64,000 nt of DNA from an uncultured Candidatus Saccharibacteria bacterium (GCA_964543385.1 CAZIYE010000001.1:486755-550754), one strand, 5' to 3'; positions 2,116-58,080 are shown, numbered from the stretch's first letter. Numbers and translations are program-made. The notes: generated by a model not told the origin, from the sequence alone.

Positions 2116-3159
2116 ATGTTAAAAAATGTTATTTTAGAAAATTTCCGCAATCATTCTAAATATGAAATTGATTTAGGAAACACAACTATTTTGATAGGTC
2201 CAAATGGCATTGGTAAAAGTAATATATTAGAAGCCATTTCGGTTTTATCTTCTTGCCGTTCTTTTCGAGAGGAAGATAAAAAAAATCTAGTATCAAACGA
2301 AGAGGATTTCTGCCGTATAAGAGGTGATAATCTTGAAGTCTTTATACAAAAGAATCCCACGCTTTTGCTCAGAGCTAAAGAGAACGGAATATTTAAAAAA
2401 AAGTCATTATTCATAGGACTATTAAGAAGTGTTGTCTTTTCTCCCGAGACAATGTTATTGGCGACCGGTAGCCCAAGAACGAGAAGGCGATTTTTAGATT
2501 TGATGATATCTCAAAGAAATCAGGAATATCTTCGTGCCCTGATTTCTTACGAGAAAATTAGAGCACAACGCAACTCTCTTCTTCAGAGAATTAAAGAGAG
2601 GCAGGCTAGTGATAAAGAATTATCATTTTGGGATGATGGTTTAATTGCAGAAGGGACCACCATTATTAGGGAGAGAGAAGGGGCTGTTTCTCTTTTGAAC
2701 AGCCTTATCAGTGATATCTATGGTAATATTTCTGGTGTAAAAGACGACTCCTTATCAATTATATATCAGAAAAGTGAAGGATTTGAATATAACATTAGGG
2801 AATGTCATCAAAAAGAGATTTGGCAAGGCTGCACGCTTTTTGGTCCTCATCGTGATGATTTTATTATTAGTTTAAACGGATTGAACATAGCAAACTTTGC
2901 TTCGAGAGGTGAAATAAGAAGTGCAGTTCTAGCAATCAAAATTGCTGAGTTGGAATTTCTGAAGATAGGAAATAATAGCTCCCCAATTTTGCTTCTAGAT
3001 GATGTATATTCGGAATTTGATGAAGAACGAAGAGAACATCTTAACCAGATAGTAAAAAACTACCAAAGTGTTGTTACTACAACTGATATGAGTCATTTAT
3101 CTAAACAATTATTAGACAATGCTAAGATAGTAGAAATGAGTAAAAGTGGAAAAAATTGA
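2116..3159 (+). CDS. recF: DNA replication and repair protein RecF (SMC-like ATPase)
   Basis: The N-terminus MLKNVILENFRNHSKYEIDLGNTTILIGPNGIGKSNILEAISVL carries the Walker A GPNGIGKS. C-terminal 'LLLDDVYSEFDEERR' is the Walker B/D-loop. Its position after dnaN is canonical. Confidence 0.9.
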   Translation: MLKNVILENFRNHSKYEIDLGNTTILIGPNGIGKSNILEAISVLSSCRSFREEDKKNLVSNEEDFCRIRGDNLEVFIQKNPTLLLRAKENGIFKKKSLFIGLLRSVVFSPETMLLATGSPRTRRRFLDLMISQRNQEYLRALISYEKIRAQRNSLLQRIKERQASDKELSFWDDGLIAEGTTIIREREGAVSLLNSLISDIYGNISGVKDDSLSIIYQKSEGFEYNIRECHQKEIWQGCTLFGPHRDDFIISLNGLNIANFASRGEIRSAVLAIKIAELEFLKIGNNSSPILLLDDVYSEFDEERREHLNQIVKNYQSVVTTTDMSHLSKQLLDNAKIVEMSKSGKN

Positions 3160-3421
3160 TAAAATACTAAGCAGTGTCTTAGCTAAAAAAGGGCTTGCTA
3201 AGGCCGCACAGGGCGCAATGGTGTGTTTTTATGCTAAGGAATGGGGAAAGGGACTATTTGAGCCTATTTCATTCCAAAATGGTACTTTGAAGATCTCCGT
3301 CTGTTCATCTCCTGCTGCTTCAGAAATTCACATAAAAGAAGCTGAGTTAATAGATTTCTTGAATAACAAACTATCAAAAAGATCAGTACGTTTCCTGAGA
3401 ATCGTAGTTAAGAATAGTTAA
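3146..3421 (+). CDS. DUF721/DciA-like small protein
   Basis: The gene is 91 aa, overlaps the recF stop by 14 nt, and sits where DUF721 (yaaA/DciA-family) genes follow recF in many bacteria. Its pattern '...LAKKGL..AAQGAMVCFYAKEWGKGL...ISFQNGTLKISVCSSPAASEI' resembles DUF721 members. The family assignment is from memory, not a search. Confidence 0.55.
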   Translation: MEKIDKILSSVLAKKGLAKAAQGAMVCFYAKEWGKGLFEPISFQNGTLKISVCSSPAASEIHIKEAELIDFLNNKLSKRSVRFLRIVVKNS

Positions 3422-3433
3422 GAGCTATCTGAG

Positions 3434-6400
3434 CTAGAATCCGATATGGGTCCAGGCAACTGTTTGAGGATTTTGCCATATGCCCATGCGGGTATCACTT
3501 TCACATCCGTTACCTTTTTTTGATCCACAAATACCACCGCATGAGATTGAGTCGTTTCCTAATCTGGGCTGGCACATATTCACCGTTATCATCCCTGCTT
3601 GATCAAAATAATCTACATCTTCTTTTCGGCCTGTCATAATCTGGATTGGATATATCGGCTCATTGTCAGTTGTATTATATTTCTCGTAATTTTGGATCCT
3701 CATCATATTTTCTATCAATTTTCTTGCCTTATTCTGAGAAGCCTCAACCATTTTCTTTTTGAGTAGTTCGTTTATGTTGTTATTTTGCTTGATTTGTCCG
3801 CCCCATACTCCCATACCAGTTGTATCATTTATCTTTGGCTGAGGAGCTTCAATCTTTGGATAATATCCATCAGCAGTACAGTAATAGTAAATTTTTTGAC
3901 CCAAAAGATATCCTGCCAAAGCTATAACTACTGCTGCTGTCCACCCCACCGGACCAAGACCAAGCAAAGGCGCGACCACGAGATTATAAACAGCCACAGT
4001 TATCAAAGGAGTCAGGGTGCCAGGGATCATTCCCAAGCTATCTTCTACTCCCGCGATTTGCTTGTCTAAAAGCTTTTCTACTGCAATTGATACAATTTTG
4101 TATACCACTAATGTTTCCGCAGCAGTAAAAGCTTGTTTTGCTGCATCTTTGGCTTCTGCTAAGTCAGAGATCTTATTTAATTCCATAAACTCTTTAGCGT
4201 TGCTCGACAGTTGAGCAATATCTTTCACTCTTGAAATCTCTTCATATATCTTCCAAGACTTATAAAGATCATAACCAAGTTTAAATATTTCAAGAGACTG
4301 TCCAGCTTTAAGGCCCAGTGTTTTATCTGCCCAAGTAAAAAGCTTTGTCGTAATAACAGTAGTTAATACCCCCCCCACAGTTGGCAGAGACATAGTTGAA
4401 CCATCAGCTACAATTGTATTATGTGTTGTGCTATCACCTTTAACAATGTTATCTAGAGTTATTGATTTCAAGCCCCAGTCGCCGGTACCGACACCGACAA
4501 GAAGTCCTTTGGCCAAATCTCCACTTATTGGGAAGCCAAACCATTCCTCGGAATTATCTGAGAGGAAGTTGCTGAAGAAATCAAATCCATTACCACTTGC
4601 AAACGTTGTAAAGGCATCTTTATCTCCGGCCACAAAATCCTTAGCAAATTTTGCTACCTGGATCCATTCGTCGACATTTTTAATTGCCTCAAAATTTTTG
4701 CCTAGTAAATGGCCATTTGTAAGGCCTGTTTTAATATATCTGGCAAGGGCAGCTGCCTTTATCTCAGCATTACCCTGAAGCAGGTCTCTGGCCATGCCTG
4801 GGTAAGAGTTCTCGTCTAATTTCCAAAGAGCAATATCGAGCATCTTGAATTGGAGATTATCCAAAGAAGCTTTTCTTATTGATTTCTGTACCGTTGTTAG
4901 TAATTCTCCATTTTTGGGAGTAAAGTTTGCACCGCTTGGTTGATAATAAGATTCTGGATTAGAAAGTCTGTCCAATCTGCCTTCTGGGTCTCCATTGTTT
5001 TTATTATATTCAGAAACACATTTATTATATTGGTCTCCACTCGCTTGGTTGGTCGATTTCTGGCAGGCCGCTGGAGCGGCTGCATTATTGCTCACAATGC
5101 TTGTATTTAACTCGTCGATCTTACTTTGCAAATTCTCCGGCGAATAATTATATTGTTCATCAACTTGATTAGTTACTGATGTTGAAGTCGATGTTTCAGT
5201 ATAATTTTTCCCCAGAGAATCGATCAAGGCATCACCGAAATTGCCGCTACCTGTTTTTGGGCAATTATCACCATTACATACCTTTCTTGTTTCCGGATTA
5301 CTGTAAATACCATTAACATCAACCCAAGCCGCCCTCTGATATGCTTCGACATCAGGCGCCCCTATTATAGAAGTTTTTATGTCATCATAGGCTATGCGCA
5401 TCTCTTGTGGAATTGCAGTCTTACACTCGTCGTCTCCATTTGCTGAGCAGTGACTTTTCCTTATATTGTCTATAGGAGCCATAACATAATTAACTCCTAG
5501 AGAAATCGCTGCAATTTGGAAATACTTCATATCCCCACTAACTAGATTAGCGATATCTTCCAAAGGCATATCAACGCCGACTCTTATCTCTTTATTATTG
5601 TAATTTGCCTTAACGTTATATATAAAATCGTGAATTTTATCACTCAATACTTCTTTACCCCATGCGACGATGTCCTCTTTAAACGATCCGTCAACATTTC
5701 CCGAAGGATTTTGGGAGATTGCGGCCTTGCAGATATTATATCGATCGTTGATCTCCTTGCTGAGGGTGGTTCTGGCCTGTTGGACTTCAGTGAGCGCAAC
5801 CTTTAAATCTTCCTGCCATTTTTTATATTCGCTAGAGTTAATATAATCATCCGTTTTTTGCCCATTCTTTGAAACAGGCTTCTGTTTTTCAAGTTCGGCA
5901 AGCTTGGCTTCTGCATTATGCAGACTAGTATCAAGCGGCGATACGGTAGGGTCCGAACTTGCTTCATTTAAACAGTCTTTTGTCTGTCCTGTCGGGCCAA
6001 AAGAAACATGAACAACGCGACTATACAATCCCGTAAAAGAAGCAGCTTTTGAAGAATCAAGCCCAAATTGGTAGTCTATTTTCTGCGCACCAATTTCCAT
6101 CAAAATAGTTCCTGAGTTCATTGGATCAGCAATAATTCTTTGGAAGGTTCCCTCAGGCAAGTTTGCTCTTTCATCAAGCTGAAAAGTGAATATCTGATTT
6201 AAATGATCATATAACTTATCCCACTTCCCATACCATTCGTCTGTTGCCGAACCAGTTCGACAAACTTTTTGTCCGTCGGTTTCGATTATTTTCCCCTGGC
6301 ACTTGAAAATATTATTTAAGTTCTTAACAAGAGTAAGAGCTGTCTCTGACTGATTTTGGTCTAAACCAAGGCTTTCTCCTATTTTGCTACCAACAAGTTT

Positions 6401-9400
6401 CAATCCTGTTTGTTCGCCAACTAGTTGATTGTATTTATCTGGAGTCATACTATTCAAGCCAGCCAAGAGGTCATAAGTAGAGTTTGAGCTTATACCAAAC
6501 TGTTTATCTAAATAATTCAACTGCTGATAAAACTCTATATTCCCAGAATTATTTTGTTGACTCTTGCCTGCAACAGCCAGTGCAGATTTCAGTCGATCTT
6601 TGATTTTTTGATCGATATTGTTAATTGCAGTAAGGGCCGGGCCATTTATAACCAACGATCCCCTTAAATGATTTTGAATTTGCCGTGCTTTGTATTCGGC
6701 GCCAGTATTTTTAATTTTCTTGGCATAGCTATCGCCAAAGATATCTACCAGGGATTTCTCATCAAAAATTTCTTCACCATTATCATCAGAGAGGGGAATG
6801 TTGAAAGATAGAGCGATATTGATAGCGCGGGACCTATCAAAGGCTTCACCGAATGTTGCCCCAAAGAATGTTCCTCTTGGAAGATTCAATGATTGCTCAA
6901 CTTTTGATTGTCCGAAGTTCGATACAAAATCACTAATTTTTTCGCCTTTTAGCGGGAAATAATCTAGGCCGATTAAGCTTCCAAGTATAGATCCGCCAAC
7001 TTGATTTAGAGTACAGTTTCTTGATATTTGGTCTTTTGCATTAAATACCGATAGGACGGTCCCGGGCTTTAAATTTAGCTCCTGATCGATATAGTTAGTA
7101 CTTATTCTGTATAACGATGTAAAATCACCGCCAAGGACATTGTAGAGGTCGTCGGGCCCAAATAATGATGGGTCAATGTTTAGGCCTGAAGCATCAAAAA
7201 TTTTATAGTTAATTACTTTTTCTGCAACTGCTCTACCAACTAATAGTTTGTAATTGGGAACTGGTAAATTTGTGCTGTCTTTGATAAACAATTTACTTAG
7301 AATCTTTTTATCAATATTATTTTTATTGCCTATAGCATCGATAAGTTGTTGGGTTTTTTCTTTATTATTTCCAAATGCATATTGTACATTTTTATCAGTG
7401 ATAAAAGACAACAGGTTATTTCTAATATCAGAGATTTGTGACTTATCACTCGCACTGTCTGCTAATCTTTGGGCTAATTCCTCCAATATATTGCCATATC
7501 TTTGGTCTTTGTTAATCAGTGAATATCGCTGGGCTTCTTCGGGGCTTTTGAAACAATGACGACCCTTCTTGTCGTAATAACAGAAGGAGTTATTCTCTAG
7601 GCTGGTTTCATTTATCGAGAATCCATCCTGTTTAGTATAAGAAACAGGGCATTGATTGCTATCAGATGCGGTATCAGCATAAGGGTTTACAAATACATAG
7701 TCTGGGTTTAATACATCGTCGTTATATTGATCAAGCTCGCTAGGTAAGATCTTGCCGCTTACTAATTTTGTATAAATATCAAGAACATTCTTGCTTATCT
7801 TTAGATTGTTCTCGAGCAAATTTTGTTCATCGCTAGACAGATTTACAGAGTAAAGATTCTTGTCCTTAGTAAATAGTGACTTCGTATCACCGTCTTCTAG
7901 GCCAAGAAGATTATCAATAGACAGGGCCTCTGAAAGTGCTTTTTGCCATGCCAAAACACCTCCAGATTTTAGTGCTTCGTAGTTTCCGCTACCAAGCCCT
8001 AATCGCATCATCAAGTCGCTTTCAGCAGATTTTAATGCATCGTTAAATCCTCTATCCTTAATATTTTGAACGATACTATCAGTATTAAAACTGTTTGCAT
8101 TTGTCTTGCTGCCAAATTGTTCAATTATTTTGTCTTGTTTTTGCTTCCAATTGTCTCTTGCTGAGGCAACCAATAAATCGTAATCAGGCCAGTTTTCAGC
8201 CTGCATCTGGCTCAAAACGTTTAATAATTTATTGCTACTATTAATACCCGTTATATCGGTAGGTAATTCCCCCAGCGGCGATTTGGCTTTATTCAATTTA
8301 CTTGCCAGGTAACTGTTTACTGCTTCATCAATCTTAGTTTTGTCTGCATACTTTAATAATTCTGAGGCATTTGTAGCAAAATCAGCCATTGTAGAGACCG
8401 AATTCTTTTCCTGAAAATAGAATGGTGGCATCGAAAAGACTTCCTCAATCTTAGCTTGGCCGATAGACTTGAAGAACGCGTCACTTCCCCCCATTCCTTT
8501 TTTCTCGAAATTCTCAACTAAATATAAGAGAGAGTTACTTGGTAAACCAAGCTTTGATTCTGCCATATTGGCACCAAATGAGATAAAAAGATCAGTCGGC
8601 GATACATTACCTGCCAAGAACCCAAATATTAGAGAGGAGGCCTTAAACGGCGAGATATTATTATTTCCTCCTCCGCTATCATTGCTAGTCAGATCCATAC
8701 TATTTATTTGAGAAAGTTTAAGGGAGTCCGAAGTTGGTATCTCTCGGCCGGATATGATTTCAGAAGATATCCTAAGGAGTTCGTTGGCATTAAAGATAAT
8801 AGAATTCAGTTCATCAATCTTGTTATTTGCCTCTGCCTTGGCGGTGGTGAAGTTCTTAATTGAATCTAGCTGGGTGACTATAGAGTCAATCTGGCTTGTT
8901 GCAGAACTCATTTTCTCCCACGTATTTTGTATTTTTATTGTATTTGCATCACTAGATTCAAAAACATTTTTGAGATTACTAATTAAATCATTAATTTCAG
9001 TATATGTATTCTCGAAACCTGAATCCTTGCTTGCAAAGATTTTCCAATCACCCTTAATATCAGCCAATAATTTTTGTGCCTGATTCAATCTTGATGTATA
9101 AAATGCGATAGTACTGTTGCTAATTCTTAATTCTGGATTCGTGTTTAATAAATCTATTTTGGTTTTGTCTTCTTTGTTGATTAATTTGTTTGCAACACCT
9201 GTATATAAAATTTGTGAACCGATCCTCTTGAAGACGGGGCTATTATTAGCTGTAGAACAACCAAAGATCCTTTGCAGGTCAAGTTTCTCGAGCCCAGCTA
9301 GCATGGACTTTTCTTCTGTCACAATAAAATCATCAGTTCGTGTTTCCACATTTTGGTCAGAGTATACTAGTGAATACTCAACTTTTTGTGTTATTGGAAT

Positions 9401-11854
9401 AGCTGGTAGAGCGTTAGAAATCTTAGAACTGCCTTGAAAAATAATTTGTCCCTCTGGTGTAATTTCATAGTCTAGAGTTTTGTTTAGCTTTGGGGCACTA
9501 CATTCGTTGCTTGATTTTTGAATGTTTCCACGAAGCCACTGTCGGAAAATAAATCTGCCAAATTCATCTGGATTAATATCTTGTGTTACGCCCCCTTCGA
9601 TAACTCGGATTTTTTTATAACTCTGGTCTGAGCTTCCCTTTGGTGCTACGCTATCATCTGCTAGGAGCCGTGCCAGAGTGTAGATGCCGATAGTTGATAG
9701 GCTCTCATGATCACCACTTAGCGCTCCCTCCCAAGTGTCTCTAATATCCGGTTGTTTCTCTGTTGGGCCTGGTAATTGATAAGCACCATTATTCATTGAA
9801 AAATATTTTAAACCATAGAGTGTGTCATCAAGTCTCTTCTTGCCTACCATCGCAGCAAAATCTGCAGAATTGATTCTTTCTAGAATAAAATTATTTGCCG
9901 TGCCTGCACCAAGATTTAGGTCATTATCAATCAATCCAGGATTGTTTTTAATCAAAGTCGACCTCAATGAGCCGATTTTATCCGAGAGGTTGCCGAAGGT
10001 TACTGCTTCTTTCGGCCAAGAGTTGCCTGCTAGATTCAAATCTTTTTCGATAACTTTTGCGCCTACATAGTTAGCGAAAACATCATTTTTTGAAGTAACA
10101 AAGGCATCTAAATCACCAGCGTTCAGATTCATCTCATGTTCTAACTTTCTCTGGCCAATCTTGATGAGAGTTGATGGCAGGTCACTACCTGATAGCGAGC
10201 CAAAAGGTATTCCTAGCTTCTTCTCAATTGCTGATCGGCCGATAGTGTATTTTATTTTCTCAATGTCTGAAAGATTCTGACCAATAAATATTTCTCTTGG
10301 CAACCCTAAATAATCAGCAACATAAGTACTTCCTAGCTTCTTGAGGGTATCTTCTACATTAAATCCGGCAAAGTTCAGACTCTTCGATTCTAAGACATTA
10401 CCTAACAGGGATTTTCCTAATATCTGAATTATATCTTCAAAATTAGCCTTGCTGAGATCTCCTTCATAAGAAGAGATGTCGCTATTCAAGTTGCCCAGCA
10501 AACCATTGACTGATTCGGAGGCAGCCGATTTTAGAAGACTCATCATATCAAATGGATCTCTCTCTCCGGATGCATTCCAGCCGTCGGTAGTTTGCCAAGC
10601 TAATTTAATTGGTTGTATCGGTTGTTTATATTTCTTTGTGCCTCCAGTGTTCTTTTTAACAACCTTCGTACACCTGATATCATCGATCTCTGATATATCT
10701 ATAGCTTGCCCTTCAGCATGAGAGGACAGATTGCGTTCCTCTACAAAAGAGTCCTCCTTTTCGGTAAGGCTAGTTAGGTAGGCCTCATATTGAGCACCAT
10801 TCTTATCTTCAATTTCAAGATCTGGGGTCGTTCCTTTTTGTTTGCCACAGTCAGCGGCAGTCATTTCATCGCTACAACCTTTAGACACAGACTTTTGGCT
10901 ATTAGCCAGAGTTTGTACCACAGAATCAGATTCTGTTGATTTATCCTGCCTTTGCAGAATGCGATTAACTCTTATTCTCCAGTGGCCAGCCCCACCCTGA
11001 TTTTTTGGAGTAATTAGGTAGACCAAGGTTTTAAGAACCCTTACATCAATATTCAGCGAGTCTATAGATTCTTTTAGTTTTTCTGCTAAATATGGCTTAT
11101 CGTGGTTAACATAATTAATAATTCTTTCGCGCCCGATTCCTGTCACACAAACCAAAGTGTCTAAATCAACAGAAGGAACTTTTCCTTTTTTTAAATTATC
11201 TTCTTCATCTGCCCAAATATCTCTTATTTTATTTTCGCCAACATTCTTTCTTGCAGCTTCGGCAAGACGATTAAAAAGTTGCAGATTGTCGAATCTCTCA
11301 GTAGAGGTTAGGTTATCTCTTCCGATCTTCAAATATTTTAAATATTCAATTGGCGTCTTGAAATCTTTGTTAGATTGCAAATTTTTATCTACGATCTCTG
11401 TTTGATCCTTAGGCAAGTTTTTATATAGGGCATCAAAATCTTCATCAAAATTTGGGAGTATATTGGAAAGACAGGAAAGTGATTTCAAGGCCGCTAAATC
11501 ACTTTGTTTCATAATTATTTTCTGTTCTGATGAATTTGTTAACAGATCATCAAAAGTAATAAGGCTATCTTGATCGGAGAACTGAGCCATTGTTTCTAAT
11601 AATTTCTTATATGCCAAAGAGTCGCTCAGTGTTTTTTTTACCTTACACTGCTGGTTATCTTTAGTTGGTATATAAGAATACTTTTTCTGATCAGCAACTT
11701 TTATTAGCAAAGGAATCTCTGGATCATAATCAATCTCTCCATCGTTGTCATCGGCTGCTTTTGCATTCAAGGCAAAAGCATATCCTGTGGATCCAAATGC
11801 GATTGATATTATCAATAAGTAAATAACAGTCTGTTTTAAAATATATTTCAACAT
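3434..11854 (-). CDS. Giant (~2,806 aa) secreted or surface-anchored protein with an N-terminal signal peptide, coiled-coil-rich body, two C-terminal TM helices and a Cys-rich tail
   Basis: It is a single uninterrupted 8.4 kb ORF. The likely start is MLKYILKQTVIYLLIISIAFGSTGYAFALNA (signal peptide), whose ATG overlaps the stop of the upstream M23 gene (TAATG). The C-terminus has hydrophobic segments 'LTPLITVAVYNLVVAPLLGLGPVGWTAAVVIALAGYLLG' and then a Cys-rich tail (CGGICGSKKGNGCESDTRMGIW). It is the last gene of the T4SS-like operon. An alternative start at 11887 extends it by 11 aa. Confidence 0.8.
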   Translation of the reverse strand: MLKYILKQTVIYLLIISIAFGSTGYAFALNAKAADDNDGEIDYDPEIPLLIKVADQKKYSYIPTKDNQQCKVKKTLSDSLAYKKLLETMAQFSDQDSLITFDDLLTNSSEQKIIMKQSDLAALKSLSCLSNILPNFDEDFDALYKNLPKDQTEIVDKNLQSNKDFKTPIEYLKYLKIGRDNLTSTERFDNLQLFNRLAEAARKNVGENKIRDIWADEEDNLKKGKVPSVDLDTLVCVTGIGRERIINYVNHDKPYLAEKLKESIDSLNIDVRVLKTLVYLITPKNQGGAGHWRIRVNRILQRQDKSTESDSVVQTLANSQKSVSKGCSDEMTAADCGKQKGTTPDLEIEDKNGAQYEAYLTSLTEKEDSFVEERNLSSHAEGQAIDISEIDDIRCTKVVKKNTGGTKKYKQPIQPIKLAWQTTDGWNASGERDPFDMMSLLKSAASESVNGLLGNLNSDISSYEGDLSKANFEDIIQILGKSLLGNVLESKSLNFAGFNVEDTLKKLGSTYVADYLGLPREIFIGQNLSDIEKIKYTIGRSAIEKKLGIPFGSLSGSDLPSTLIKIGQRKLEHEMNLNAGDLDAFVTSKNDVFANYVGAKVIEKDLNLAGNSWPKEAVTFGNLSDKIGSLRSTLIKNNPGLIDNDLNLGAGTANNFILERINSADFAAMVGKKRLDDTLYGLKYFSMNNGAYQLPGPTEKQPDIRDTWEGALSGDHESLSTIGIYTLARLLADDSVAPKGSSDQSYKKIRVIEGGVTQDINPDEFGRFIFRQWLRGNIQKSSNECSAPKLNKTLDYEITPEGQIIFQGSSKISNALPAIPITQKVEYSLVYSDQNVETRTDDFIVTEEKSMLAGLEKLDLQRIFGCSTANNSPVFKRIGSQILYTGVANKLINKEDKTKIDLLNTNPELRISNSTIAFYTSRLNQAQKLLADIKGDWKIFASKDSGFENTYTEINDLISNLKNVFESSDANTIKIQNTWEKMSSATSQIDSIVTQLDSIKNFTTAKAEANNKIDELNSIIFNANELLRISSEIISGREIPTSDSLKLSQINSMDLTSNDSGGGNNNISPFKASSLIFGFLAGNVSPTDLFISFGANMAESKLGLPSNSLLYLVENFEKKGMGGSDAFFKSIGQAKIEEVFSMPPFYFQEKNSVSTMADFATNASELLKYADKTKIDEAVNSYLASKLNKAKSPLGELPTDITGINSSNKLLNVLSQMQAENWPDYDLLVASARDNWKQKQDKIIEQFGSKTNANSFNTDSIVQNIKDRGFNDALKSAESDLMMRLGLGSGNYEALKSGGVLAWQKALSEALSIDNLLGLEDGDTKSLFTKDKNLYSVNLSSDEQNLLENNLKISKNVLDIYTKLVSGKILPSELDQYNDDVLNPDYVFVNPYADTASDSNQCPVSYTKQDGFSINETSLENNSFCYYDKKGRHCFKSPEEAQRYSLINKDQRYGNILEELAQRLADSASDKSQISDIRNNLLSFITDKNVQYAFGNNKEKTQQLIDAIGNKNNIDKKILSKLFIKDSTNLPVPNYKLLVGRAVAEKVINYKIFDASGLNIDPSLFGPDDLYNVLGGDFTSLYRISTNYIDQELNLKPGTVLSVFNAKDQISRNCTLNQVGGSILGSLIGLDYFPLKGEKISDFVSNFGQSKVEQSLNLPRGTFFGATFGEAFDRSRAINIALSFNIPLSDDNGEEIFDEKSLVDIFGDSYAKKIKNTGAEYKARQIQNHLRGSLVINGPALTAINNIDQKIKDRLKSALAVAGKSQQNNSGNIEFYQQLNYLDKQFGISSNSTYDLLAGLNSMTPDKYNQLVGEQTGLKLVGSKIGESLGLDQNQSETALTLVKNLNNIFKCQGKIIETDGQKVCRTGSATDEWYGKWDKLYDHLNQIFTFQLDERANLPEGTFQRIIADPMNSGTILMEIGAQKIDYQFGLDSSKAASFTGLYSRVVHVSFGPTGQTKDCLNEASSDPTVSPLDTSLHNAEAKLAELEKQKPVSKNGQKTDDYINSSEYKKWQEDLKVALTEVQQARTTLSKEINDRYNICKAAISQNPSGNVDGSFKEDIVAWGKEVLSDKIHDFIYNVKANYNNKEIRVGVDMPLEDIANLVSGDMKYFQIAAISLGVNYVMAPIDNIRKSHCSANGDDECKTAIPQEMRIAYDDIKTSIIGAPDVEAYQRAAWVDVNGIYSNPETRKVCNGDNCPKTGSGNFGDALIDSLGKNYTETSTSTSVTNQVDEQYNYSPENLQSKIDELNTSIVSNNAAAPAACQKSTNQASGDQYNKCVSEYNKNNGDPEGRLDRLSNPESYYQPSGANFTPKNGELLTTVQKSIRKASLDNLQFKMLDIALWKLDENSYPGMARDLLQGNAEIKAAALARYIKTGLTNGHLLGKNFEAIKNVDEWIQVAKFAKDFVAGDKDAFTTFASGNGFDFFSNFLSDNSEEWFGFPISGDLAKGLLVGVGTGDWGLKSITLDNIVKGDSTTHNTIVADGSTMSLPTVGGVLTTVITTKLFTWADKTLGLKAGQSLEIFKLGYDLYKSWKIYEEISRVKDIAQLSSNAKEFMELNKISDLAEAKDAAKQAFTAAETLVVYKIVSIAVEKLLDKQIAGVEDSLGMIPGTLTPLITVAVYNLVVAPLLGLGPVGWTAAVVIALAGYLLGQKIYYYCTADGYYPKIEAPQPKINDTTGMGVWGGQIKQNNNINELLKKKMVEASQNKARKLIENMMRIQNYEKYNTTDNEPIYPIQIMTGRKEDVDYFDQAGMITVNMCQPRLGNDSISCGGICGSKKGNGCESDTRMGIWQNPQTVAWTHIGF

Positions 11855-13578
11855 TATTGTCCAAGAACTTTCTTCATATTGTTCCACAAATATTCGCCCC
11901 AGGATTTTCCTTCAGTCTGCTCATATTCAATCTTATCGAGAAGTGTTGTGGTGACGGGGACACCACAATAACTAAGCTCGAGATGCAATTGAGAATAGTC
12001 TGATATTGTAGCCACCTTACCTATAGTCTTGTCCCGAGTGACGCCGGTGCCTTCTCCGACATTCTTATCCAAGTCAACATGGGCGTATAGAATTTCATAA
12101 TCACCATTTTTAATAACAATCTTCTTATGACCTGTTCCATCGTCTGAAATATTAGTGACCTGGCCGTCGAACATTGGGTAGACCAAAGTATCCTTATTAG
12201 TATAGAGGTCAACTGCATCAGCTTTACCCTGACCATAGTACATGTATGTACTATGTCCGCTTTCATTGCTAGGCATTTCTTTTCGTAAGGGAGTGCCATA
12301 ATGGAGCTCCCAATTAAACCCAGATATATTTTCTAATGGAAGTCTGGTCTTTGCTTGCATAATAGGAGATTGCTGGTCAGCTGATTCCAAAATAGATTTT
12401 ACTGAAGTTATAATCTCTCGTCCAAGAACAGGGTCGTTATTTACTAAATACTGGTCGATTTTGGATGAAGTATCAGCTATTTTGTTTTTAGTTTCTTGAT
12501 TTGATGATGATACATCTGTTCCGGTGGATGCTTCCAATTGCGATAGTTGCTTTTGAATATCGGAAAATGTTTGGTTATTTAATTTAGCTTTTGCCTCTTT
12601 ATCACCTGATGCCATAATTGTTTTCTGAATCGCAGCGGAATCTGTAACAGGATCCGCAGGCTTATTAAATGTTGATCCTGCTTTTCCAGTCCCAGCATCT
12701 CCTATAATGGCAGACATAATTGCAATGCCCGCTACAATGATGACAATTGCCAAAATAATCCACGGTAAATATGGCAAGATTGCTTTCCATAGGGCAGCTA
12801 GGGCTTCTTTGGAAAACTTTTTCTTTAATTTATCAATTATCTTTTTACGTGCTTCCTTATTTAACCAATCCAGCCAAGAAGACTTCTGCTGGTTTTGTGC
12901 TTGATCATCTTGGGATTTTTTTTGCTCAGCTGCGTCAGAATCAGCTTTCTCTTGGTCTAATCTTTCTTGATCAGGATTATTTCCATCGTTTTCCTCATTA
13001 CCATCACTCTCTTCCGATTGTCGTGCTCCCATAACCTGGATCGTCATGGAGCCAGGAGTACCGCTCTTGCTACCAATGGCAGTAATATATAAAACTCCAT
13101 TCTCACACTCGGGGCTAGTTTTGATAATAAATGACTTACTTGAACCATCCTCAGTCTGGTCACTCACTCCATGGAATACCCCGCTCACCCCACCTTCGGC
13201 TTCCCAGAAATATCCTTCATCCTCGGTAAAATCTATAGTTCCGCCTGACAAAGTAACACTCTGATTCGGGCCGACCGACGATGGACCGTCAATAATAACT
13301 ACTGGTTGGATAGGAGATACAAGGGCTCCTCTCGTTACTGCAGGCGATCCGCTTACGGCTTTTTGGCGCGCCTCACGAAGTTTTGAATTGAAGAGGTTTA
13401 GCAATTCTTGTGCCTTCTTCTTGTTTTTTATTTTTTTTAGCTGCTCACTAAAATAGCGGCTGGCTTGTGCACTATTCCATGCGCCGCTTTTTACTTTATT
13501 TATATAAGAAGGTATTGATCTTTCTACAAACCTAATGAATTTTGCTTCTTTGTCGTCCACAAACCCCTCCATTATCAC
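11854..13578 (-). CDS. Membrane-anchored M23 (LytM-type) peptidoglycan endopeptidase-domain protein
   Basis: A central single TM segment (LPWIILAIVIIVAGIAIMSAIIG) is present. The C-terminal ~130 aa carry M23 motifs: GHSTYMYYGQGKADAVD (HxxxD region), VYPMFDGQVTNIS, KIVIKNGDYEILYAHVD, and IGKVATISDYSQLHLEL (the HLH(F)E-like second His motif). The N-terminal half is acidic and low-complexity. Confidence 0.7.
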   Translation of the reverse strand: MIMEGFVDDKEAKFIRFVERSIPSYINKVKSGAWNSAQASRYFSEQLKKIKNKKKAQELLNLFNSKLREARQKAVSGSPAVTRGALVSPIQPVVIIDGPSSVGPNQSVTLSGGTIDFTEDEGYFWEAEGGVSGVFHGVSDQTEDGSSKSFIIKTSPECENGVLYITAIGSKSGTPGSMTIQVMGARQSEESDGNEENDGNNPDQERLDQEKADSDAAEQKKSQDDQAQNQQKSSWLDWLNKEARKKIIDKLKKKFSKEALAALWKAILPYLPWIILAIVIIVAGIAIMSAIIGDAGTGKAGSTFNKPADPVTDSAAIQKTIMASGDKEAKAKLNNQTFSDIQKQLSQLEASTGTDVSSSNQETKNKIADTSSKIDQYLVNNDPVLGREIITSVKSILESADQQSPIMQAKTRLPLENISGFNWELHYGTPLRKEMPSNESGHSTYMYYGQGKADAVDLYTNKDTLVYPMFDGQVTNISDDGTGHKKIVIKNGDYEILYAHVDLDKNVGEGTGVTRDKTIGKVATISDYSQLHLELSYCGVPVTTTLLDKIEYEQTEGKSWGEYLWNNMKKVLGQ

Positions 13579-13671: not shown

Positions 13672-14934
13672 CTATTCGACATTTAATGCTCTGATCGCCT
13701 CATTATCTTGGTAAATAATGATGTTGTTATCATCGGTCAGCACTAGATTGTGAATAAAAGTATCCCCAAGATTCTTGATAACAAAACCATTCTGCTGTCT
13801 TTTTTTTGTGTCATATTTGAATATTGATTCCTCTTTTGTATCGGGGTCATAAGTAGCCACAATAATATTTTCAGAATCCTTGCTCCAAGTAGTCTTTTTC
13901 AGTTCGGCTCTGATGTCCAGCGATTTTTTATTAGTGCCATCTTTATCCATAATAGAAAGGATTGATTCTACTGGCCCTTCTTGGCTTTTAGAATATGTTG
14001 AATAGAGTATTTTATTGCCATCAGGGGAGAAATTAGCATCAAGCTGGTTTCCTATGTCGGCAATCTCTGATATTTTTCGTGAATAGGAATTAAATAAATA
14101 AATCTTATTCTTTTCGGTATCCTCATTGCGGGGAATTATTAAAAGCCATTCGGAGTCAGGAGACCAACGTAAAAGGGGATTATCAATTCCATAATCATTA
14201 AAATTGAGCACTCGCGTAATTTCTTTATTTGCTGCGCCAGTAAAGATTAATGACTTCTCGCCATCTTCCGGTGCATAGTAGTATGCGATCTTAGAATTGT
14301 CTGGAGCCCAAGCGATGCTACCAATATTATTACCCCACGAATCTTCATTTTGATTGATAAAGTCATATTTTTTCAAATCAAAAAAGGAAATGATTTCAGG
14401 CTTACGTAGCAAAGCTAGATCTTTTGTTGGAGACCAGATAATTTCATCTATGTCTGATATTACAGGATTTGTAACGGCTCTTTCTTCGGCCAACTTTACT
14501 CTTTGTCCGACATCTGTTTTTGTGCGTACCCTATATATTGTTGTCCCATTTTGGTAATAAATATCATTAAAATCATTACCCTTATTTAAAAACTTTCCGC
14601 CGATAGAAATAGTCAGAGGATCGGGGGTTCTATCTAGGCTGATAGTAATTTTCTTAGGCATACCCCTTTTAAAATTCATTTCCTGATTTATGCCGATATA
14701 TCCTCTTGCTTCAATTCTGATCATATGTAGGCCTGGAGAGATAAAACGACGTATTAGACCAGAGTCGGGAACAGCAAAAGGCTTGCCGTCGATTGAAAAT
14801 GAAGAATTAGTGGGCTCTAGCTGAATATTCATAAATGAATGAGTAATAAACCATAGGAGCACAATCAAAGCCAGAGTAATTGCTGATATTACTAGAAATA
14901 TTGAACGTGTTAATTTTTTAATTTCTTTATGCAT
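13672..14934 (-). CDS. Membrane-anchored PEGA-domain plus TolB-like (PD40) beta-propeller protein
   Basis: An N-terminal TM (IFLVISAITLALIVLLWFI) is followed by a PEGA-like segment (FSIDGKPFAVPDSGLIRRFISPGLHMIRIEARGYIGINQEMNFKRG). Repeated PD40 signatures follow: WSPTKDLALL, IAWAPDNSKIAYYY, WSPDSEWLLII, FSPDGNKILYSTY, WSKDSENIIVATY. Confidence 0.65.
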   Translation of the reverse strand: MHKEIKKLTRSIFLVISAITLALIVLLWFITHSFMNIQLEPTNSSFSIDGKPFAVPDSGLIRRFISPGLHMIRIEARGYIGINQEMNFKRGMPKKITISLDRTPDPLTISIGGKFLNKGNDFNDIYYQNGTTIYRVRTKTDVGQRVKLAEERAVTNPVISDIDEIIWSPTKDLALLRKPEIISFFDLKKYDFINQNEDSWGNNIGSIAWAPDNSKIAYYYAPEDGEKSLIFTGAANKEITRVLNFNDYGIDNPLLRWSPDSEWLLIIPRNEDTEKNKIYLFNSYSRKISEIADIGNQLDANFSPDGNKILYSTYSKSQEGPVESILSIMDKDGTNKKSLDIRAELKKTTWSKDSENIIVATYDPDTKEESIFKYDTKKRQQNGFVIKNLGDTFIHNLVLTDDNNIIIYQDNEAIRALNVE

Positions 14935-14974: not shown

Positions 14975-16255
14975 TTAGTATTGCTCAATTCTTAAGTGAA
15001 AGTGGGCCTTGTGCTTATCCCATGCTACCATGCGCCCTGGCTTTTTATTTTCTATAGCATAGCTATTTACTGCCGCTATAACCTCTGAGTCTTCGTAACC
15101 AATCCTTGTGGCGCCACAATTGATCAGAAGTTTACCCAGGTCTATCATCATTTGTCTATTTGCAGCATCATAATTATTATTAGCTATAGCTGGTCTCTCC
15201 CTAACATTCATCATGTGGCCAGGTAGTAATATATCAGCGTCGATTCCTTTGGCGTGGGAGGCATGACCGTCAGCCTTTTTGCATTGCCCGCTCAATTCAC
15301 CGATAACAAGTTTTGGTCTGCCGGCTTCAGCCCACTGTTTGCTAACAGATACAAGAATATTAATTAATGACGGCTTGCCCCAATGTTCTTCTTTATCGCC
15401 GCTCTTTGTGTAATACTTTTCAAGTGCTGGAACTTCTACCCAACCGCAGGATGAGCCCTTATAACCAAGGTTAAGGTTTGTTTTGCAAAGAAGAGAATTT
15501 GGAATGAGTTTAGTAGTTACCGATGCAAGTGAGAGACAGCCATTATTAAGTCCTTGAAAATTTTTCCATGTGCGCAATGCATATCCTGGTCCATTTGGGT
15601 TTGGGTAAGGTGCTCCCCAATTCCACCCAGGGTTTTTCGTATTCTCTGGTGCCCTATCTAGAGGAAAACCCATTTTTTTCCACTCCCTTAATCTGGCGGG
15701 GCCTCTGTTATAAAGCATTCCCGCAGCCTTCACAGTTTTTTCGTCAGCCCCGTCTGCTTTCAAACCATTATCTTCGAGATGGTATTTTATATATGCAGCT
15801 GCGGCTAATGCAGAATCAGCGAAATCGTCTGGATTACCTGTGGGCTTATCTGAATATTTTTTATAAATATTACCGGCCCACTTACCGTCAAAATCCTCAA
15901 TCTGAAAAGGTCCCTTTGCATTTCCGCCTCGTGCCCAAATTCCATTAGCACCAGCAGAAGCCTTAATAGAATCACCGTGCTCTGCCATGAATATAGCTCC
16001 AAGCAAGGCAGGTTGTATCCCAACCTTGTTAGCAGCTTCCTCAATGGCCGATTGATACCCGCTAGGAGCTGCATCCCAGGACGTACAGCGTATATTGCCA
16101 AATAAATTAACAGGGTTTACGGTTTCCTTTATTCTTCCGCTCCACAGAGATGTTCCAGCTGCAGTAAAAGCGAGTGAAAGTACTGCGGCCAAACCTAAAA
16201 CAGCCAGTATTATACCGGCCTGAGTAAAACCCTTGCTGTTTCTGTGAAACATCAC
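14975..16255 (-). CDS. Bifunctional cell-wall hydrolase with an N-terminal lytic transglycosylase (SLT) domain and a C-terminal M15/VanY-like peptidase domain, acting as a VirB1/CwlT-like T4SS accessory
   Basis: A signal/TM N-terminus is present. SLT motifs are GIQPALLGAIFMAEHGDS (catalytic Glu context) and GPFQI. C-terminal 'ASHAKGIDADI' (H-x2-G-x-D-x-D) and terminal 'DKHKAHFHLRIE' (HxH) match the LAS/M15 zinc-peptidase pattern. The gene lies directly downstream of virB4. Confidence 0.65.
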   Translation of the reverse strand: MMFHRNSKGFTQAGIILAVLGLAAVLSLAFTAAGTSLWSGRIKETVNPVNLFGNIRCTSWDAAPSGYQSAIEEAANKVGIQPALLGAIFMAEHGDSIKASAGANGIWARGGNAKGPFQIEDFDGKWAGNIYKKYSDKPTGNPDDFADSALAAAAYIKYHLEDNGLKADGADEKTVKAAGMLYNRGPARLREWKKMGFPLDRAPENTKNPGWNWGAPYPNPNGPGYALRTWKNFQGLNNGCLSLASVTTKLIPNSLLCKTNLNLGYKGSSCGWVEVPALEKYYTKSGDKEEHWGKPSLINILVSVSKQWAEAGRPKLVIGELSGQCKKADGHASHAKGIDADILLPGHMMNVRERPAIANNNYDAANRQMMIDLGKLLINCGATRIGYEDSEVIAAVNSYAIENKKPGRMVAWDKHKAHFHLRIEQY

Positions 16256-16256
16256 A

Positions 16257-18110
16257 TTATTGTCCTAATAATTGCTTTGGATCAGTGGTAATTATCTGAT
16301 CTTCTGTATATGAAGCAACAGCCTTGAATGCAACATGATTTAATCCCGCAAAGAACAGTCCTTCCCCGACGTCGGACTCAAGAAGAAGGTATTTCTCTCC
16401 TTCGGTTAAATTAAAAGTTTCAGCTACGATATCTATTGATGCCGTTGATTGTTTCATAAGTATTTGCATTGATGAGTTGGCCACTACTGCTTTACCAAAC
16501 CTACTGCCCAAGAAATCCTCAACATCTTGGCTTATTATTGTAAGGCCAAGATAATATTTTCTGGCTCTTTTTGCCAATCCATGAAGAAATTTTGCAGAAT
16601 CCTCATATTGCATCATCCACCATGCTTCATCTACTATCATCAAGCGCTGCTTCATATTCATGCGGACTTTGGTCCAAATATAATCAAGAACGGTGTAGAT
16701 TGCTATTGGTCTCAGCTGTTCTTCGAGATCCCTAACGGAGAAGACCACAAAGCCGGGGTTTAATTCGAAATTCGTTGGCTGATTGTATAGATTTGCAAAT
16801 GAACCCTCTACATATTTTGATAATCTTGCTCGAAGTGACCCAGTTCCTTCTAGATTAGATAAAATATTATAGAAATCTTGAAGGAGGGGAGGTTCATTTT
16901 TCTGACTTGCTGGATCGACAGTGATGTCTTTTATTGCGTATGTTTCATAAAGAGCTTTGTCTATAATAGAATCTTCTTCAGGGCTGAGTCCGCCCGCCAT
17001 CAAATTAATAAGTCCATGTAGGGAAGAAATATTTGAACGGAGAACATCTTCTCCTGCCTCATTTGGATTGAGGGGTAGATCGAAAGGGTTGATTCTTTTG
17101 TCGGAGTTTAATGATATTTCCAGATAGCTGCCACCCACTGAATCGCAAAGAGTCTTATATTCATTCTCCGGGTCTATTACAATGACATCTGTCCCCAGCA
17201 TCAAATATCGGAGCGCTTCTAGTTTCACAAAGTAAGATTTACCAGAACCAGATTTTGCCAATACTATAGAATTAGCATTTTCCAATGAAAATCGGTCAAA
17301 TATAATTAATGAGTTATTGTGTCGATTTATTCCGTACAATATCCCATCATCCTGAGTCAATTCACTTGATGTAAAAGGAAATGTTGAAGATAGAGAAGCG
17401 GTATCGAGATTTCTAAGAACACTAATCCTATCAGACATGATCGGCAGCGTGGCAGTAAAGCCTTGCTCCATTTGGAATATTGATTGTTTTGTATAGATTA
17501 GCATTCCGCCAAGGGTTGATTCTACTTGGTCAGTTATCGTTTTTAGTTCCTCCTCTGATTTTGCGTACAGTGTGAAGTAGAGTCCAAACTGAAAAAGTCG
17601 AACCTCTCCTCTTTGAAGGACATCTCTTAATGATTCGACGTCGCCTAGCGCAGTTTCAAGCTCTGGATCCCTAGGTGAGCCTTTTTCTGCTTGAATTTGC
17701 ATTGTGGATTCAAGTTTTCCTACCTGAGTTTTGAGCTCAGTCATCACATCTTTAGATTCTAATGGGTGGATGTATAGCCCTATGTCCATTGTGATGTCAT
17801 AGTTTATGATTGGAGATAGCCAGTTTGTTTCTAAAAATCGGGGGTAAGTAAAGACGAATAATGTTTTAGTAAATTGAGTGCCAACTTGGAGACTGTTTGG
17901 GCTCACAATAAATGAGGCTGGTGCAATAATATCTCCAATAGCCACAGTCCCTTTTCGGAACTGTTCTTGGAGTTTTTTGCTCTGATCCCAAAAACCGTTT
18001 TCCTTAAGCTTTTTTGATTCGACTTCCCGTTGCTGTAGGTTGGCCTGAGCCATTGATCTTGGGTCTGGTGTTTGATTTTGTCCTGCTAAAACAGGGTTAT
18101 TATTGTCCAT
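16257..18110 (-). CDS. virB4: VirB4/TrbE/CagE-family T4SS ATPase, central plus C-terminal ATPase portion
   Basis: Walker A is 'SIVLAKSGSGKSYFV' and Walker B is 'RLMIVDEAWWMM'. The VirB4 middle-domain signature 'FTKTLFVFTYPRFLETNWLSPII' is present. The likely start MDNNNP is at 18110. The ORF-track start at 18176 lies inside the upstream ORF. Confidence 0.85.
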   Translation of the reverse strand: MDNNNPVLAGQNQTPDPRSMAQANLQQREVESKKLKENGFWDQSKKLQEQFRKGTVAIGDIIAPASFIVSPNSLQVGTQFTKTLFVFTYPRFLETNWLSPIINYDITMDIGLYIHPLESKDVMTELKTQVGKLESTMQIQAEKGSPRDPELETALGDVESLRDVLQRGEVRLFQFGLYFTLYAKSEEELKTITDQVESTLGGMLIYTKQSIFQMEQGFTATLPIMSDRISVLRNLDTASLSSTFPFTSSELTQDDGILYGINRHNNSLIIFDRFSLENANSIVLAKSGSGKSYFVKLEALRYLMLGTDVIVIDPENEYKTLCDSVGGSYLEISLNSDKRINPFDLPLNPNEAGEDVLRSNISSLHGLINLMAGGLSPEEDSIIDKALYETYAIKDITVDPASQKNEPPLLQDFYNILSNLEGTGSLRARLSKYVEGSFANLYNQPTNFELNPGFVVFSVRDLEEQLRPIAIYTVLDYIWTKVRMNMKQRLMIVDEAWWMMQYEDSAKFLHGLAKRARKYYLGLTIISQDVEDFLGSRFGKAVVANSSMQILMKQSTASIDIVAETFNLTEGEKYLLLESDVGEGLFFAGLNHVAFKAVASYTEDQIITTDPKQLLGQ

Positions 18111-19071
18111 TATTTTGTATGGTTGTATTAATTGGTTGAGCAGGGGCTGATTGTATAGGCATATTATTTGTATCAACAGCCGATGGTATCTGTTGGATTT
18201 GCTGTATCAATTGGTCAGTTGTATTTGATTGTATAGTATTGTTGCCAACGACTGGTTGTGTTCCTTGCGGGGTTTGTGCTGTCTTATCGGCTTCTTGGCG
18301 TCGTCGTGAGGCGATTTGCCTTTGTTGTTCCTCTACCATGTCAGCGTTATCAATTGATTCTTGAGAATCAACTTGTTCTACCGGTTGTTGTGTATTCTCA
18401 GAAATCTCATTCCTCGCAATTATTACTGGCGCTGACAATGTCTCCGCATCGCTAACCCTTTCCTTCGCCGACTCATCAGGATTATATATCTGGTAGAAGA
18501 GCTCTATTATTTGTTCAGTAGAAAGCTGGAAGCAATGTAAGCCCATGCTAGCCAAGCCCGAGGCAACAATACTCGCTCTTTGCCCTAGTTGGTCAGTAGA
18601 TGATTTGAACTCCGTATCAGTAACTTTGATATGGTCAAACGTTTGTGTCTTGGCAAACAGACTATCAAAGACATTTAATTTTTTTATATTAATTGGATCG
18701 TAGGGGACGACTAGATAAAAGGTCTTTTTCATAATATTGGCTATTGAGATCAGTTTTGACACAAAATCAACATAATCACCAATTTGCATTTTTATAAGTT
18801 CATTGATGCTTTTTTCAGAGGCCCTTTTTATTTTTTCAAGATAGGGATTCAAGTCTAATCGTCTCGATCTAATAACAATTTCAACAGGGAAGTGTAGAGA
18901 ATTAAGAAAACTCTGATATTGAAATATAAGTGAGTTTTGTTCTTGTTCACTTTTCAATGCAAAATTTACGGCAGATACTTCTAAAATCATGCGGTAACTA
19001 CCATCTTTCAATATCATTATACCGTCTTTGATACCGGCTATAGGAACAGATTGTTGGGTCGATAATGCCAT
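18100..19071 (-). CDS. VirB4 N-terminal domain (CagE/TrbE/VirB N-terminal-like) encoded as a separate 323-aa ORF ending in a Q/N/P/T-rich linker
   Basis: 'IAGIKDGIMILKDGSYRMILEVSAVNFALKSEQEQNSLIFQYQSFLNSLHFPVEIVIRS' matches the characteristic VirB4 N-terminus. A later segment 'ELFYQIYNPDE' also fits. The tail is low-complexity QQ/PT-rich. Its last 11 nt (ATGGACAATAA) contain the start of the ATPase ORF, and the low-complexity coding continues in both frames. Confidence 0.65.
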   Translation of the reverse strand: MALSTQQSVPIAGIKDGIMILKDGSYRMILEVSAVNFALKSEQEQNSLIFQYQSFLNSLHFPVEIVIRSRRLDLNPYLEKIKRASEKSINELIKMQIGDYVDFVSKLISIANIMKKTFYLVVPYDPINIKKLNVFDSLFAKTQTFDHIKVTDTEFKSSTDQLGQRASIVASGLASMGLHCFQLSTEQIIELFYQIYNPDESAKERVSDAETLSAPVIIARNEISENTQQPVEQVDSQESIDNADMVEEQQRQIASRRRQEADKTAQTPQGTQPVVGNNTIQSNTTDQLIQQIQQIPSAVDTNNMPIQSAPAQPINTTIQNNGQ

Positions 19072-19088
19072 ATATTAACTTTAAATAA

Positions 19089-20396: not shown

Positions 20397-20413
20397 TTTT
20401 TACCTTTTGAATA

Positions 20414-57977: not shown

Positions 57978-58080
57978 ATATTTATCAAGAGTGGCGCGAG
58001 AGTTTTGGCTCTATGACCGCCCAGCAACCTCAAGGAAACTTGAACGGTGCTAATTCCAAGCCTCACGGCGAGATAAAACA
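57978..58080 (+). ncRNA. SAM-I (S-box) riboswitch aptamer upstream of metK
   Basis: Core elements in order are UUAUCAAGAG (P1 5' strand) and GGCG..AGAG-UUUUGG-CUCU (P3 hairpin), then AUGA..CCGCC..GCAACC and GGUGCUAAUUCC, closing with P1 3' GAUAA at 58072-58076. Spacing agrees with the Rfam SAM-I consensus as remembered. A T-run (58107-58113) follows, but no convincing terminator stem was found. Confidence 0.75.

Follow-up and report, generated by a model that had tools for sequence, protein, structure and literature searches.

A family of giant proteins with a Hedgehog/DD-peptidase-type zinc-ligand motif holds a fixed slot in the type IV secretion operon of Patescibacteria and may supply a structural subunit of the machine

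Patescibacteria encode a chromosomal type IV secretion system (T4SS) which lacks a relaxase, is MPF-FATA-like and lies near dnaA (Quinonero-Coronel et al. 2025, PMC12102498). The system is essential in Southlakia epibionticum (Wang et al. 2023, PMC10633639) and is one of only a handful of machines whose essentiality for epibiotic life in Patescibacteria has been demonstrated; its role has been termed "completely unknown", and effector delivery has been proposed (PMC11665869). Published inventories of this T4SS comprise recognisable homologues only and list neither an adhesin nor an envelope-spanning component; one of them states that 'no adhesins ... were detected' in Patescibacteria and reports no PrgB-like adhesin (PMC12102498). 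Directly after virB4, S. epibionticum encodes SEML1_0007, an essential protein of 1,113 amino acids (aa) with a Hedgehog/DD-peptidase domain (PMC10633639), and cryo-electron tomography (cryo-ET) of another Patescibacterium has revealed a lance or tube structure (PMC11880426). Here we analyzed a stretch of 64,000 nucleotides (the window) from an uncultured Candidatus Saccharibacteria bacterium (GCA_964543385.1 CAZIYE010000001.1:486755-550754), in which the last gene of a T4SS-like operon encodes a protein of 2,806 aa, referred to below as the giant. We propose, with a probability of about 50%, that the giant is a structural subunit of the T4SS, extracellular and anchored in the membrane, whose head recognises peptidoglycan and is probably non-canonical. 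The T4SS itself has been published, and the giant looks to be undescribed: no published description of the protein was found, and neither PMC12102498 nor PMC10633639 mentions it, the word 'giant' having 0 occurrences in each. Predicted to be exported, 1,400-3,300 aa long across its family and fixed in a slot by oriC in many lineages, it readily suggests itself as a candidate for the T4SS's missing extracellular part, and its gene takes up about 1.3% of a contig of ~0.67 Mb.

The gene and the parts of its product are as follows (window coordinates):

3434..11854, minus strand: giant coding sequence (ATG at 11854, stop at 3434-3436; 2,806 aa; 8.4-kb gene)
11768..11854, minus strand: aa 1-29, Sec-type signal peptide or N-terminal anchor (MLKYILK, a hydrophobic core and AFA/AKA; Kyte-Doolittle scan)
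11150..11767, minus strand: aa 30-235, N-terminal region, moderately conserved in the conservation profile and missing from short, ~1,400-aa members
10520..11107, minus strand: aa 250-445, LAS (Hedgehog/DD-peptidase)-like head, the most conserved domain of the giant (alignments, AlphaFold2 model)
10697..10726, minus strand: aa 377-386, SSHAEGQAID, that is, the SxHxxGxAxD or H-x(6)-D zinc-ligand motif (S377, H379, G382 and D386 invariant)
9545..10447, minus strand: aa 470-770, helical repeat module R1 (AlphaFold2, hhalign self-matches and unit profile; helices ~30 aa apart)
7775..8602, minus strand: aa 1085-1360, helical repeat module R2, homologous to R1 (hhalign 95%, aa 1085-1331; unit at aa 1086-1111)
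6389..7339, minus strand: aa 1506-1822, helical repeat module R3, homologous to R1 (hhalign 97-98%, aa 1558-1822; units at aa 1580-1600 and 1641-1665)
3902..4018, minus strand: aa 2613-2651, two hydrophobic segments split by GLGPVG, a putative transmembrane hairpin (hydropathy)
3437..3901, minus strand: aa 2652-2806, conserved C-terminal tail of 155 aa (C2659-x-ADGYYP, AAQYKAxRL, PxQIMTGRxEDV and, at the carboxyl end, WxNPQTxxTHIGF)
3494..3541, minus strand: aa 2772-2787, Cys cluster CGGICGSKKGNGCESD (three Cys, of which C2776 alone is conserved)

The initial annotation, made from the same sequence, had described a single stop-free frame at 3434-11887, and this was borne out: the mechanical open reading frame (ORF) at 3434..11887 (minus strand) has 2,817 codons counted from its first GTG (11887) and 0 internal stops. 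The ATG at 11854 is the likely start of the gene, giving 2,806 aa, close to the ~2,800 aa first annotated. Gene callers chose this start and returned an identical giant protein on contigs of three separate sequencing runs and assemblies; the internal stops or frameshifts named beforehand as marks of a pseudogene were not seen. Furthermore, comparison with a 71%-identical relative gave a nonsynonymous proportion (pN) of 0.17 against a synonymous proportion (pS) of 0.85, the latter saturated, which shows that the gene is under purifying selection. A pseudogene or a misassembly is ruled out by these two results together. One base is common to this ATG and to the TAA with which the upstream gene (11854..13578) ends (TAATG; ACAATAATGTTG; ACAATAATG), an overlap that had been noted correctly, as had the M23 peptidase assignment of that gene (Peptidase_M23, E 1.8e-8), and translational coupling of the two genes is probable.

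The giant belongs to a family of its own. A word-indexed search returned 62 relatives with 26-77% identity, almost all of 2,400-3,160 aa and most covering 60-100% of the query; all 62 are annotated as 'hypothetical', and those with a named source come from Berkelbacteria or Patescibacteria metagenome-assembled genomes (MAGs). Among the closer relatives the protein is conserved from end to end, most strongly at aa 250-550, 1100-1150 and 2700-2806. An exhaustive hidden Markov model (HMM) search for the head domain yielded 194 cluster representatives, in nearly all of which the domain lies close to the N-terminus of a protein of 1,400-3,300 aa; entries below this length are probably contig-end fragments. 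No member of the family carries a Pfam domain or has been named. For the whole giant, Pfam gave 0 hits at E<=1 and there was no NCBIfam and no meaningful PHROG match; in the same three collections no named T4SS family (VirB1-11, Prg/Trs/Tcp) was matched. No relatives were found on plasmids (tblastn, 72,556 plasmids), and none were detected outside the family. In composition the giant, which had been called Asn-Ser-Lys-rich, is so only mildly (N 7.9, S 8.7, K 8.4%). In the closest species-representative relative (L007:4904-10071, 10-kb MAG contig; head 82% identical) the gene is present as two overlapping ORFs; the split probably reflects a frameshift introduced in assembly rather than a real pseudogene.

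The genes around the giant are tightly spaced or overlapping and, within the operon, lie on its strand:

11854..13578, minus strand: co-conserved partner of 574 aa, with a hydrophobic segment in the middle and an M23-type domain at the C-terminus
13672..14934, minus strand: 420-aa beta-propeller (TolB/Tricorn-like), co-conserved partner
14975..16255, minus strand: SLT + M74 (MepA-like) wall hydrolase in a variable 'VirB1-like' slot
16257..19511, minus strand: T4SS core (VirB4 P-loop part 16257-18176; TraC/TrsD-like N part 18100-19071; PrgI/VirB3-like 19089-19511)
19578..25064, minus strand: upstream operon genes encoding 272, 874 and 692 aa
967..3421, plus strand: dnaN, recF and a DciA-like gene, convergent with the giant; origin-of-replication region, with dnaA next in longer contigs

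We fetched 29 species-representative loci by head-domain alignment and scored their ORFs with the window proteins. Every sufficiently flanked locus showed the order PrgI, TraC-like, VirB4, an optional hydrolase, beta-propeller, a protein of ~550 aa and the giant, and in about 20 of these loci DciA-recF-dnaN followed past the giant. The same operon order was found in distant members (P0024, P0039, P0050, P0105 and the 1,436-aa P0119), among them that short form and a 2,435-aa form at ~25-28% identity. The giant is present in one copy per locus, at a fixed position. Its placement as the terminal gene of a T4SS-like operon, first proposed for the window, therefore holds in about 30 species and down to ~25% identity; in the window it is the last gene of its strand run, with the DciA-like gene (3146..3421) convergent and 12 nucleotides away. 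The slot between VirB4 and the propeller swaps its canonical domains by lineage (M74+SLT, SLT+Amidase_2, M15_4, VanY or C39_2), while the head of the giant stays constant.

Compared with the described Patescibacterial T4SS, the window shares PrgI/VirB3, TrsD/TraC-like and VirB4 proteins, VirB6-like proteins, wall hydrolases, the adjoining dnaA/dnaN and a cluster without a relaxase; it differs in that the giant, the beta-propeller and the ~550-aa membrane protein are extra co-conserved members of the cluster in this lineage. By its position, the 874-aa product is the counterpart of a TrbL_3-matching (VirB6-like) protein in relatives, homology being shown for locus L004 only. SEML1_0007, likewise large and hypothetical, occupies the equivalent slot of the operon by dnaA-dnaN-recF and has a Hedgehog/DD-peptidase domain (ECOD e6n7gC1), and as far as its description goes it may be a functional parallel to the giant. 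However, its DD-peptidase domain is C-terminal (aa 951-1105) and was assigned with a probability of 0.993, whereas that of the giant is N-terminal, degenerate and followed by ~2,400 residues. The extended VirB6 proteins of Rickettsiales (Anaplasma VirB6-4, 4,322 aa) are also giant, T4SS-encoded proteins with large hydrophilic extensions, but VirB6 has at least five transmembrane helices and the giant a signal peptide and one hydrophobic hairpin. We rejected the giant as a VirB6 or extended VirB6 protein: its hydropathy profile has too few segments, and the TrbL_3-type counterpart is a separate upstream gene.

The strongest conservation of the family lies in the head domain, with the consensus IDxRVLKTLxYLVTPKxQGGAGH...SAHxxGQAVDISEIDDIRCT...PIKLAWQT, and no feature of the whole family is conserved more strongly than the LAS-type zinc-ligand motif within it. 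In LAS or Hedgehog/DD-peptidase enzymes, the first such motif is defined as S-x-H-x-x-G-x-A-x-D with H-x(6)-D spacing (PMC6027127). The giant, in which the initial annotation had seen no catalytic motif, reads SSHAEGQAID at aa 377-386, though the second half of the canonical active site is missing. Across 41 sequences, distant members included, D270, S377, H379, G382, D386 and Q421 are invariant, and D391, W420 and Q421 are conserved after D386, the invariant Q421 standing near the place of the last LAS His. H291 is not conserved, being Arg, Phe or Leu in distant members. The head of the window protein carries a lineage-specific low-complexity insertion at aa ~300-370; in compact relatives it measures ~135 aa without it. 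The SxHxxGxAxDI stretch and the H-x(6)-D spacing are shared with LAS enzymes (M15 VanX/VanY/LdcB, M74 MepA and the Sonic hedgehog N-domain), and a related operon encodes a true M15_4 protein that has SSHAFGLAIDI where the giant has SSHAEGQAIDI. Searches member by member gave weak Pfam matches to VanY, M15_2/3/4 and Extensin-like_C (E 0.007-0.14), families which we take to belong to the Pfam clan Peptidase_MD; at least 8 of the 29 matches listed fell in that clan. With a deeper head profile, 19 of 21 weak PDB matches were Sonic or Indian hedgehog N-domains aligned over the motif (E 0.38-2.2). The weak matches lean towards the LAS clan alone. An AlphaFold2 (AF2) model of aa 236-760, built from 61 sequences with a mean predicted local distance difference test score (pLDDT) of 75 and a predicted template-modelling score (pTM) of 0.59, has a head core of one helix and five strands, which would be compatible with the LAS fold.

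In contrast to LAS enzymes, the giant lacks HxH/ExxH and a conserved SGYR-type Arg, has a Gln near the last His, and shows nothing significant past the motif; the neighbouring true M15_4 and M74 enzymes carry DPMH and HFH. On these sequence grounds we regard the head as LAS-derived at the level of the motif and as a putative member of the fold. Canonical catalysis is unlikely because the HxH/ExxH half of the active site is missing, and metal-dependent binding of peptide stems would be the most economical role. A recognisable enzymatic domain had been named beforehand as what would point away from an adhesin or fibre; a LAS-type motif was found and a significant domain match was not, and the motif moves the likely role away from adhesion and closer to that of a secretion-machine component directed at the cell wall. 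The giant could instead be an active, non-canonical peptidoglycan hydrolase, a VirB1 analogue or a predatory lysin, in which H379 and D386 would act with D391 or Q421 and the rest would be spacer. We consider this unlikely. The strict conservation of H-x(6)-D, and of D391 and Q421 too, speaks for it, as do an operon rich in wall hydrolases and the essential peptidase and lysozyme genes after virB4 in Southlakia; yet no conserved His or Glu occupies the LAS HxH/ExxH place, H291 is replaced in distant members, canonical exchangeable hydrolases are already encoded next door, and about 2,400 further conserved residues would be left without a role in a lysin.

Behind the head, the AF2 model shows at residues 470-730 (pLDDT 84-97) helices of ~16 residues, one in each ~28-34 residues, with 'LxLPxGS(L/F)' loops between them. 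Profile self-comparison with hhalign showed that this module, R1, is repeated within the protein, R2 and R3 further along the chain being homologous to it. An iterated HMM of the ~30-aa unit found 7 significant copies in the giant, against 0 in 50 shuffles; among 118 relatives the median was 5. The initial annotation had expected long coiled-coil segments; the modelled stretch of 290 aa consists instead of helix-loop repeats, Pfam gave no repeat-family match, and a home-made heptad scan (crude, not a standard predictor) scored no better than shuffles (maximum 0.52 vs 0.49 +/- 0.06), on which ground a canonical coiled coil was ruled out. The span of family lengths from 1,400 to 3,300 aa is compatible with gain and loss of helical modules. 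A long, helical, modular body whose length would vary in this way also suits a tape-measure-like protein that sets the length of, or scaffolds, a pilus or 'lance' assembled by the T4SS, and a VirB2-like pilin array nearby in the same genome and the cryo-ET lance or tube of another Patescibacterium (PMC11880426) fit the same idea. However, nothing ties the length of the giant to any measured structure, tape-measure matches in BFVD were noise (E > 0.8), and a membrane anchor with a Sec signal is unlike phage tape measures; we therefore hold a tape-measure role to be quite improbable. Between R2 and R3 lies a conserved stretch with three Cys, C1402, C1425 and C1434 (CPVSYTK...SFCYYDKKGRHCF; aa 1402-1434, window ~7553-7651, minus strand), which from its sequence may be a small disulfide- or metal-stabilised insert.

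The two ends of the giant indicate how it could be placed in the envelope. The N-terminus, MLKYILKQTVIYLLIISIAFGSTGYAFALNAKA, has a basic n-region, a hydrophobic core within aa 2-29 (20 residues following MLKYILK) and AxA sites in the Kyte-Doolittle scan; it looks like a Sec signal, and the cleavage presumed for it agrees with the cleavable-looking signal peptide that had been annotated. Apart from this segment, the only region above the hydropathy threshold is the hydrophobic pair spanning aa 2613-2651. It lies 155-193 aa before the C-terminus; two hydrophobic helices ~200 aa from the end had been placed there. The two-segment region with its short Gly/Pro/Ala-rich turn is kept in 22 relatives, as are the tail motifs, namely the invariant Cys of CxADGYYP, AAQYKAxRL, PxQIMTGRxEDV and, at the extreme C-terminus, WxNPQTxxTHIGF; these motifs are retained also in short family members. 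The tail had been called Cys-rich on the strength of CGGICGSKKGNGCESD: the cluster is present, and C2776 is the one conserved Cys out of the three in it; in the tail as a whole, C2659, C2761 and C2776 are conserved. A search with the alignment of the C-terminal tail matched only contig-end fragments of the giant family and yielded no stand-alone version. Given an exported N-terminus, the tail would lie outside if the hydrophobic pair is a true hairpin and inside if it forms a single long span.

A giant effector or toxin passed to the host cell as a T4SS substrate would agree with a Patescibacterial T4SS that lacks a relaxase and for which effector delivery has been proposed (PMC11665869). The Sec signal and the conserved C-terminal hydrophobic hairpin argue for retention in the membrane, however; the C-terminus is the most conserved part and holds no variable toxin module, no toxin family was matched, an adjacent immunity-like gene is absent, and the gene occurs in one copy at a fixed position. 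The chance that the giant is such a substrate therefore seems to us very slim. A polymorphic toxin was rejected on the grounds that conservation in the C-terminal 155 aa is among the highest in the protein and that the gene lying downstream is DciA-like, a convergent replication gene.

PrgB is an LPXTG-anchored, beta-rich protein of about 1,300 aa. Like enterococcal adhesins of this type, the giant is large, would reach the surface by Sec export and is encoded alongside a monoderm T4SS, but it has neither an LPXTG motif nor an adhesin domain, and the modelled part of its body consists of helical repeats, with homologous modules further on. A free-standing giant adhesin or fibre that binds the host cell, and lies near the T4SS for co-expression by the origin while remaining outside the machine, is to our minds rather doubtful. 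It would account for the predicted signal peptide, the membrane anchor and the large extracellular mass; a wall-binding head would suit adhesion, and Gram-positive T4SSs depend on surface adhesins, of which no PrgB-like one was detected in Patescibacteria (PMC12102498). Against this, no adhesin, Ig-like, beta-helix or lectin family was matched in Pfam, NCBIfam or PHROGs, the full-length alignment with closer relatives and the highly conserved C-terminus are unlike typical host-range adhesins, and the operon slot and two partner genes are fixed across deep divergence. The generic adhesin or fibre of the initial annotation thus gives way to a protein that aligns over its whole length at 26-77% identity, contains homologous helical modules and matches no Ig-like, beta-helix or adhesin family. 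The two ideas overlap, and adhesion could be one task of a subunit of the machine.

Hydrolases of the PrgK, TraG and CwlT type have about 300-900 aa, are N-terminally anchored and carry canonical SLT, CHAP or NlpC-P60 domains. Like PrgK (pCF10), TraG (pIP501) and CwlT (ICEBs1), which are required for channel assembly, the giant would be a membrane-tethered, extracellular, wall-directed protein of a T4SS operon; it differs from them in being 3-9 times larger, C-terminally anchored and without a canonical catalytic domain. Together, the fixed slot, the two co-conserved partners, the whole-length conservation among closer relatives and the unchanging, half-degenerate head fit a T4SS subunit better than an adhesin, a toxin or a simple lysin. 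In the structural-subunit reading that we favour, Sec would export the giant, and the C-terminal hydrophobic hairpin with the 155-aa tail would tether it to the cytoplasmic membrane, where its C-terminal end would presumably meet the VirB6/VirB3/VirB4 channel. About 2,500 residues would reach outward as an elongated stalk holding the repeated helical modules. The distal N-terminal head, which would derive from the Hedgehog/DD-peptidase (LAS) group, keeping H-x(6)-D and having lost the HxH/ExxH half, would most likely recognise peptidoglycan peptide stems, or cut them non-canonically. The giant, the beta-propeller, the bitopic M23-type partner and the exchangeable canonical hydrolase would then open and hold a passage through the wall for the T4SS, the traversed wall being the cell's own, that of the host or both.

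Several results weigh against the structural-subunit reading. Membership of the operon is no proof of physical association with the T4SS. The assignment of the head to the LAS group rests on a motif of ~20 residues, and after D386 there is no conserved counterpart of the second LAS motif (HxH or ExxH/DxxH), which provides the third zinc ligand and the catalytic residue. Every Pfam and PDB match of the head is below significance; a PDB profile search with a 34-sequence head alignment gave noise only, and hhalign of the head profile against the M15_4 protein, a weak test with a single sequence on that side, aligned 20 columns with 6% probability; a homologue search with the M15_4 domain of the neighbouring gene, meant to supply a profile for that side, came back empty, as did phmmer of the domain against PDB. 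A first AF2 model of aa 236-450 from 34 sequences was poor (pLDDT 60.6), and even in the better model the SxH stretch stays below pLDDT 50. Foldseek found no structural relatives of that model (best E 1.1 in PDB and 0.26 in BFVD). A bolder version of the proposal, in which the giant founds a new class of T4SS subunit with an envelope-spanning or host-reaching stalk, perhaps the 'lance/tube' seen by cryo-ET, that is formed in part by a new ~30-aa helix-loop repeat and has a degenerate Hedgehog/DD-peptidase tip that docks on peptidoglycan, is offered as a tentative possibility.

Some further features of the locus were observed. The ~550-aa partner varies in its C-terminal wall-directed domain, which is M23-type in the window and LAS-type in L009:7594-9240 (SQHMTGDAMD, no Pfam match). 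By eye, the M23 domain of the 574-aa partner (aa ~454-542) reads ADAVD for HxxxD and QLHLE for HLHFE, so that two usual His are seemingly gone, and judged by these residues it may be a non-catalytic LytM-type domain like those of EnvC and NlpD. The same protein carries a hydrophobic segment in its centre, WIILAIVIIVAGIAIMSAII, and lacks an N-terminal signal, features that point to a bitopic topology. VirB4 is present at window 16257-19071 (minus strand) as two overlapping ORFs, a 323-aa TraC/TrsD-like N part and a P-loop part, a split known from Patescibacteria; in the distant locus L036 both parts are fused into 892 aa. At window 3422-3433, the mere 12 nucleotides between the stops of the giant and DciA-like genes cannot hold a conventional intrinsic terminator. 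Beyond the left end of the window, in the same genome, five tandem small genes (L001:26494-28361) match PF18895 T4SS_pilin (VirB2-like); this array lies past dnaA-rnpA-yidC and a T2SSE ATPase, and the origin separates it from the T4SS operon. Elsewhere in the window, an S-adenosylmethionine (SAM) riboswitch (RF00162, 59.6 bits, E 2.9e-11) is located at 57979-58079 on the plus strand, directly upstream of an ORF at 58137-59321.

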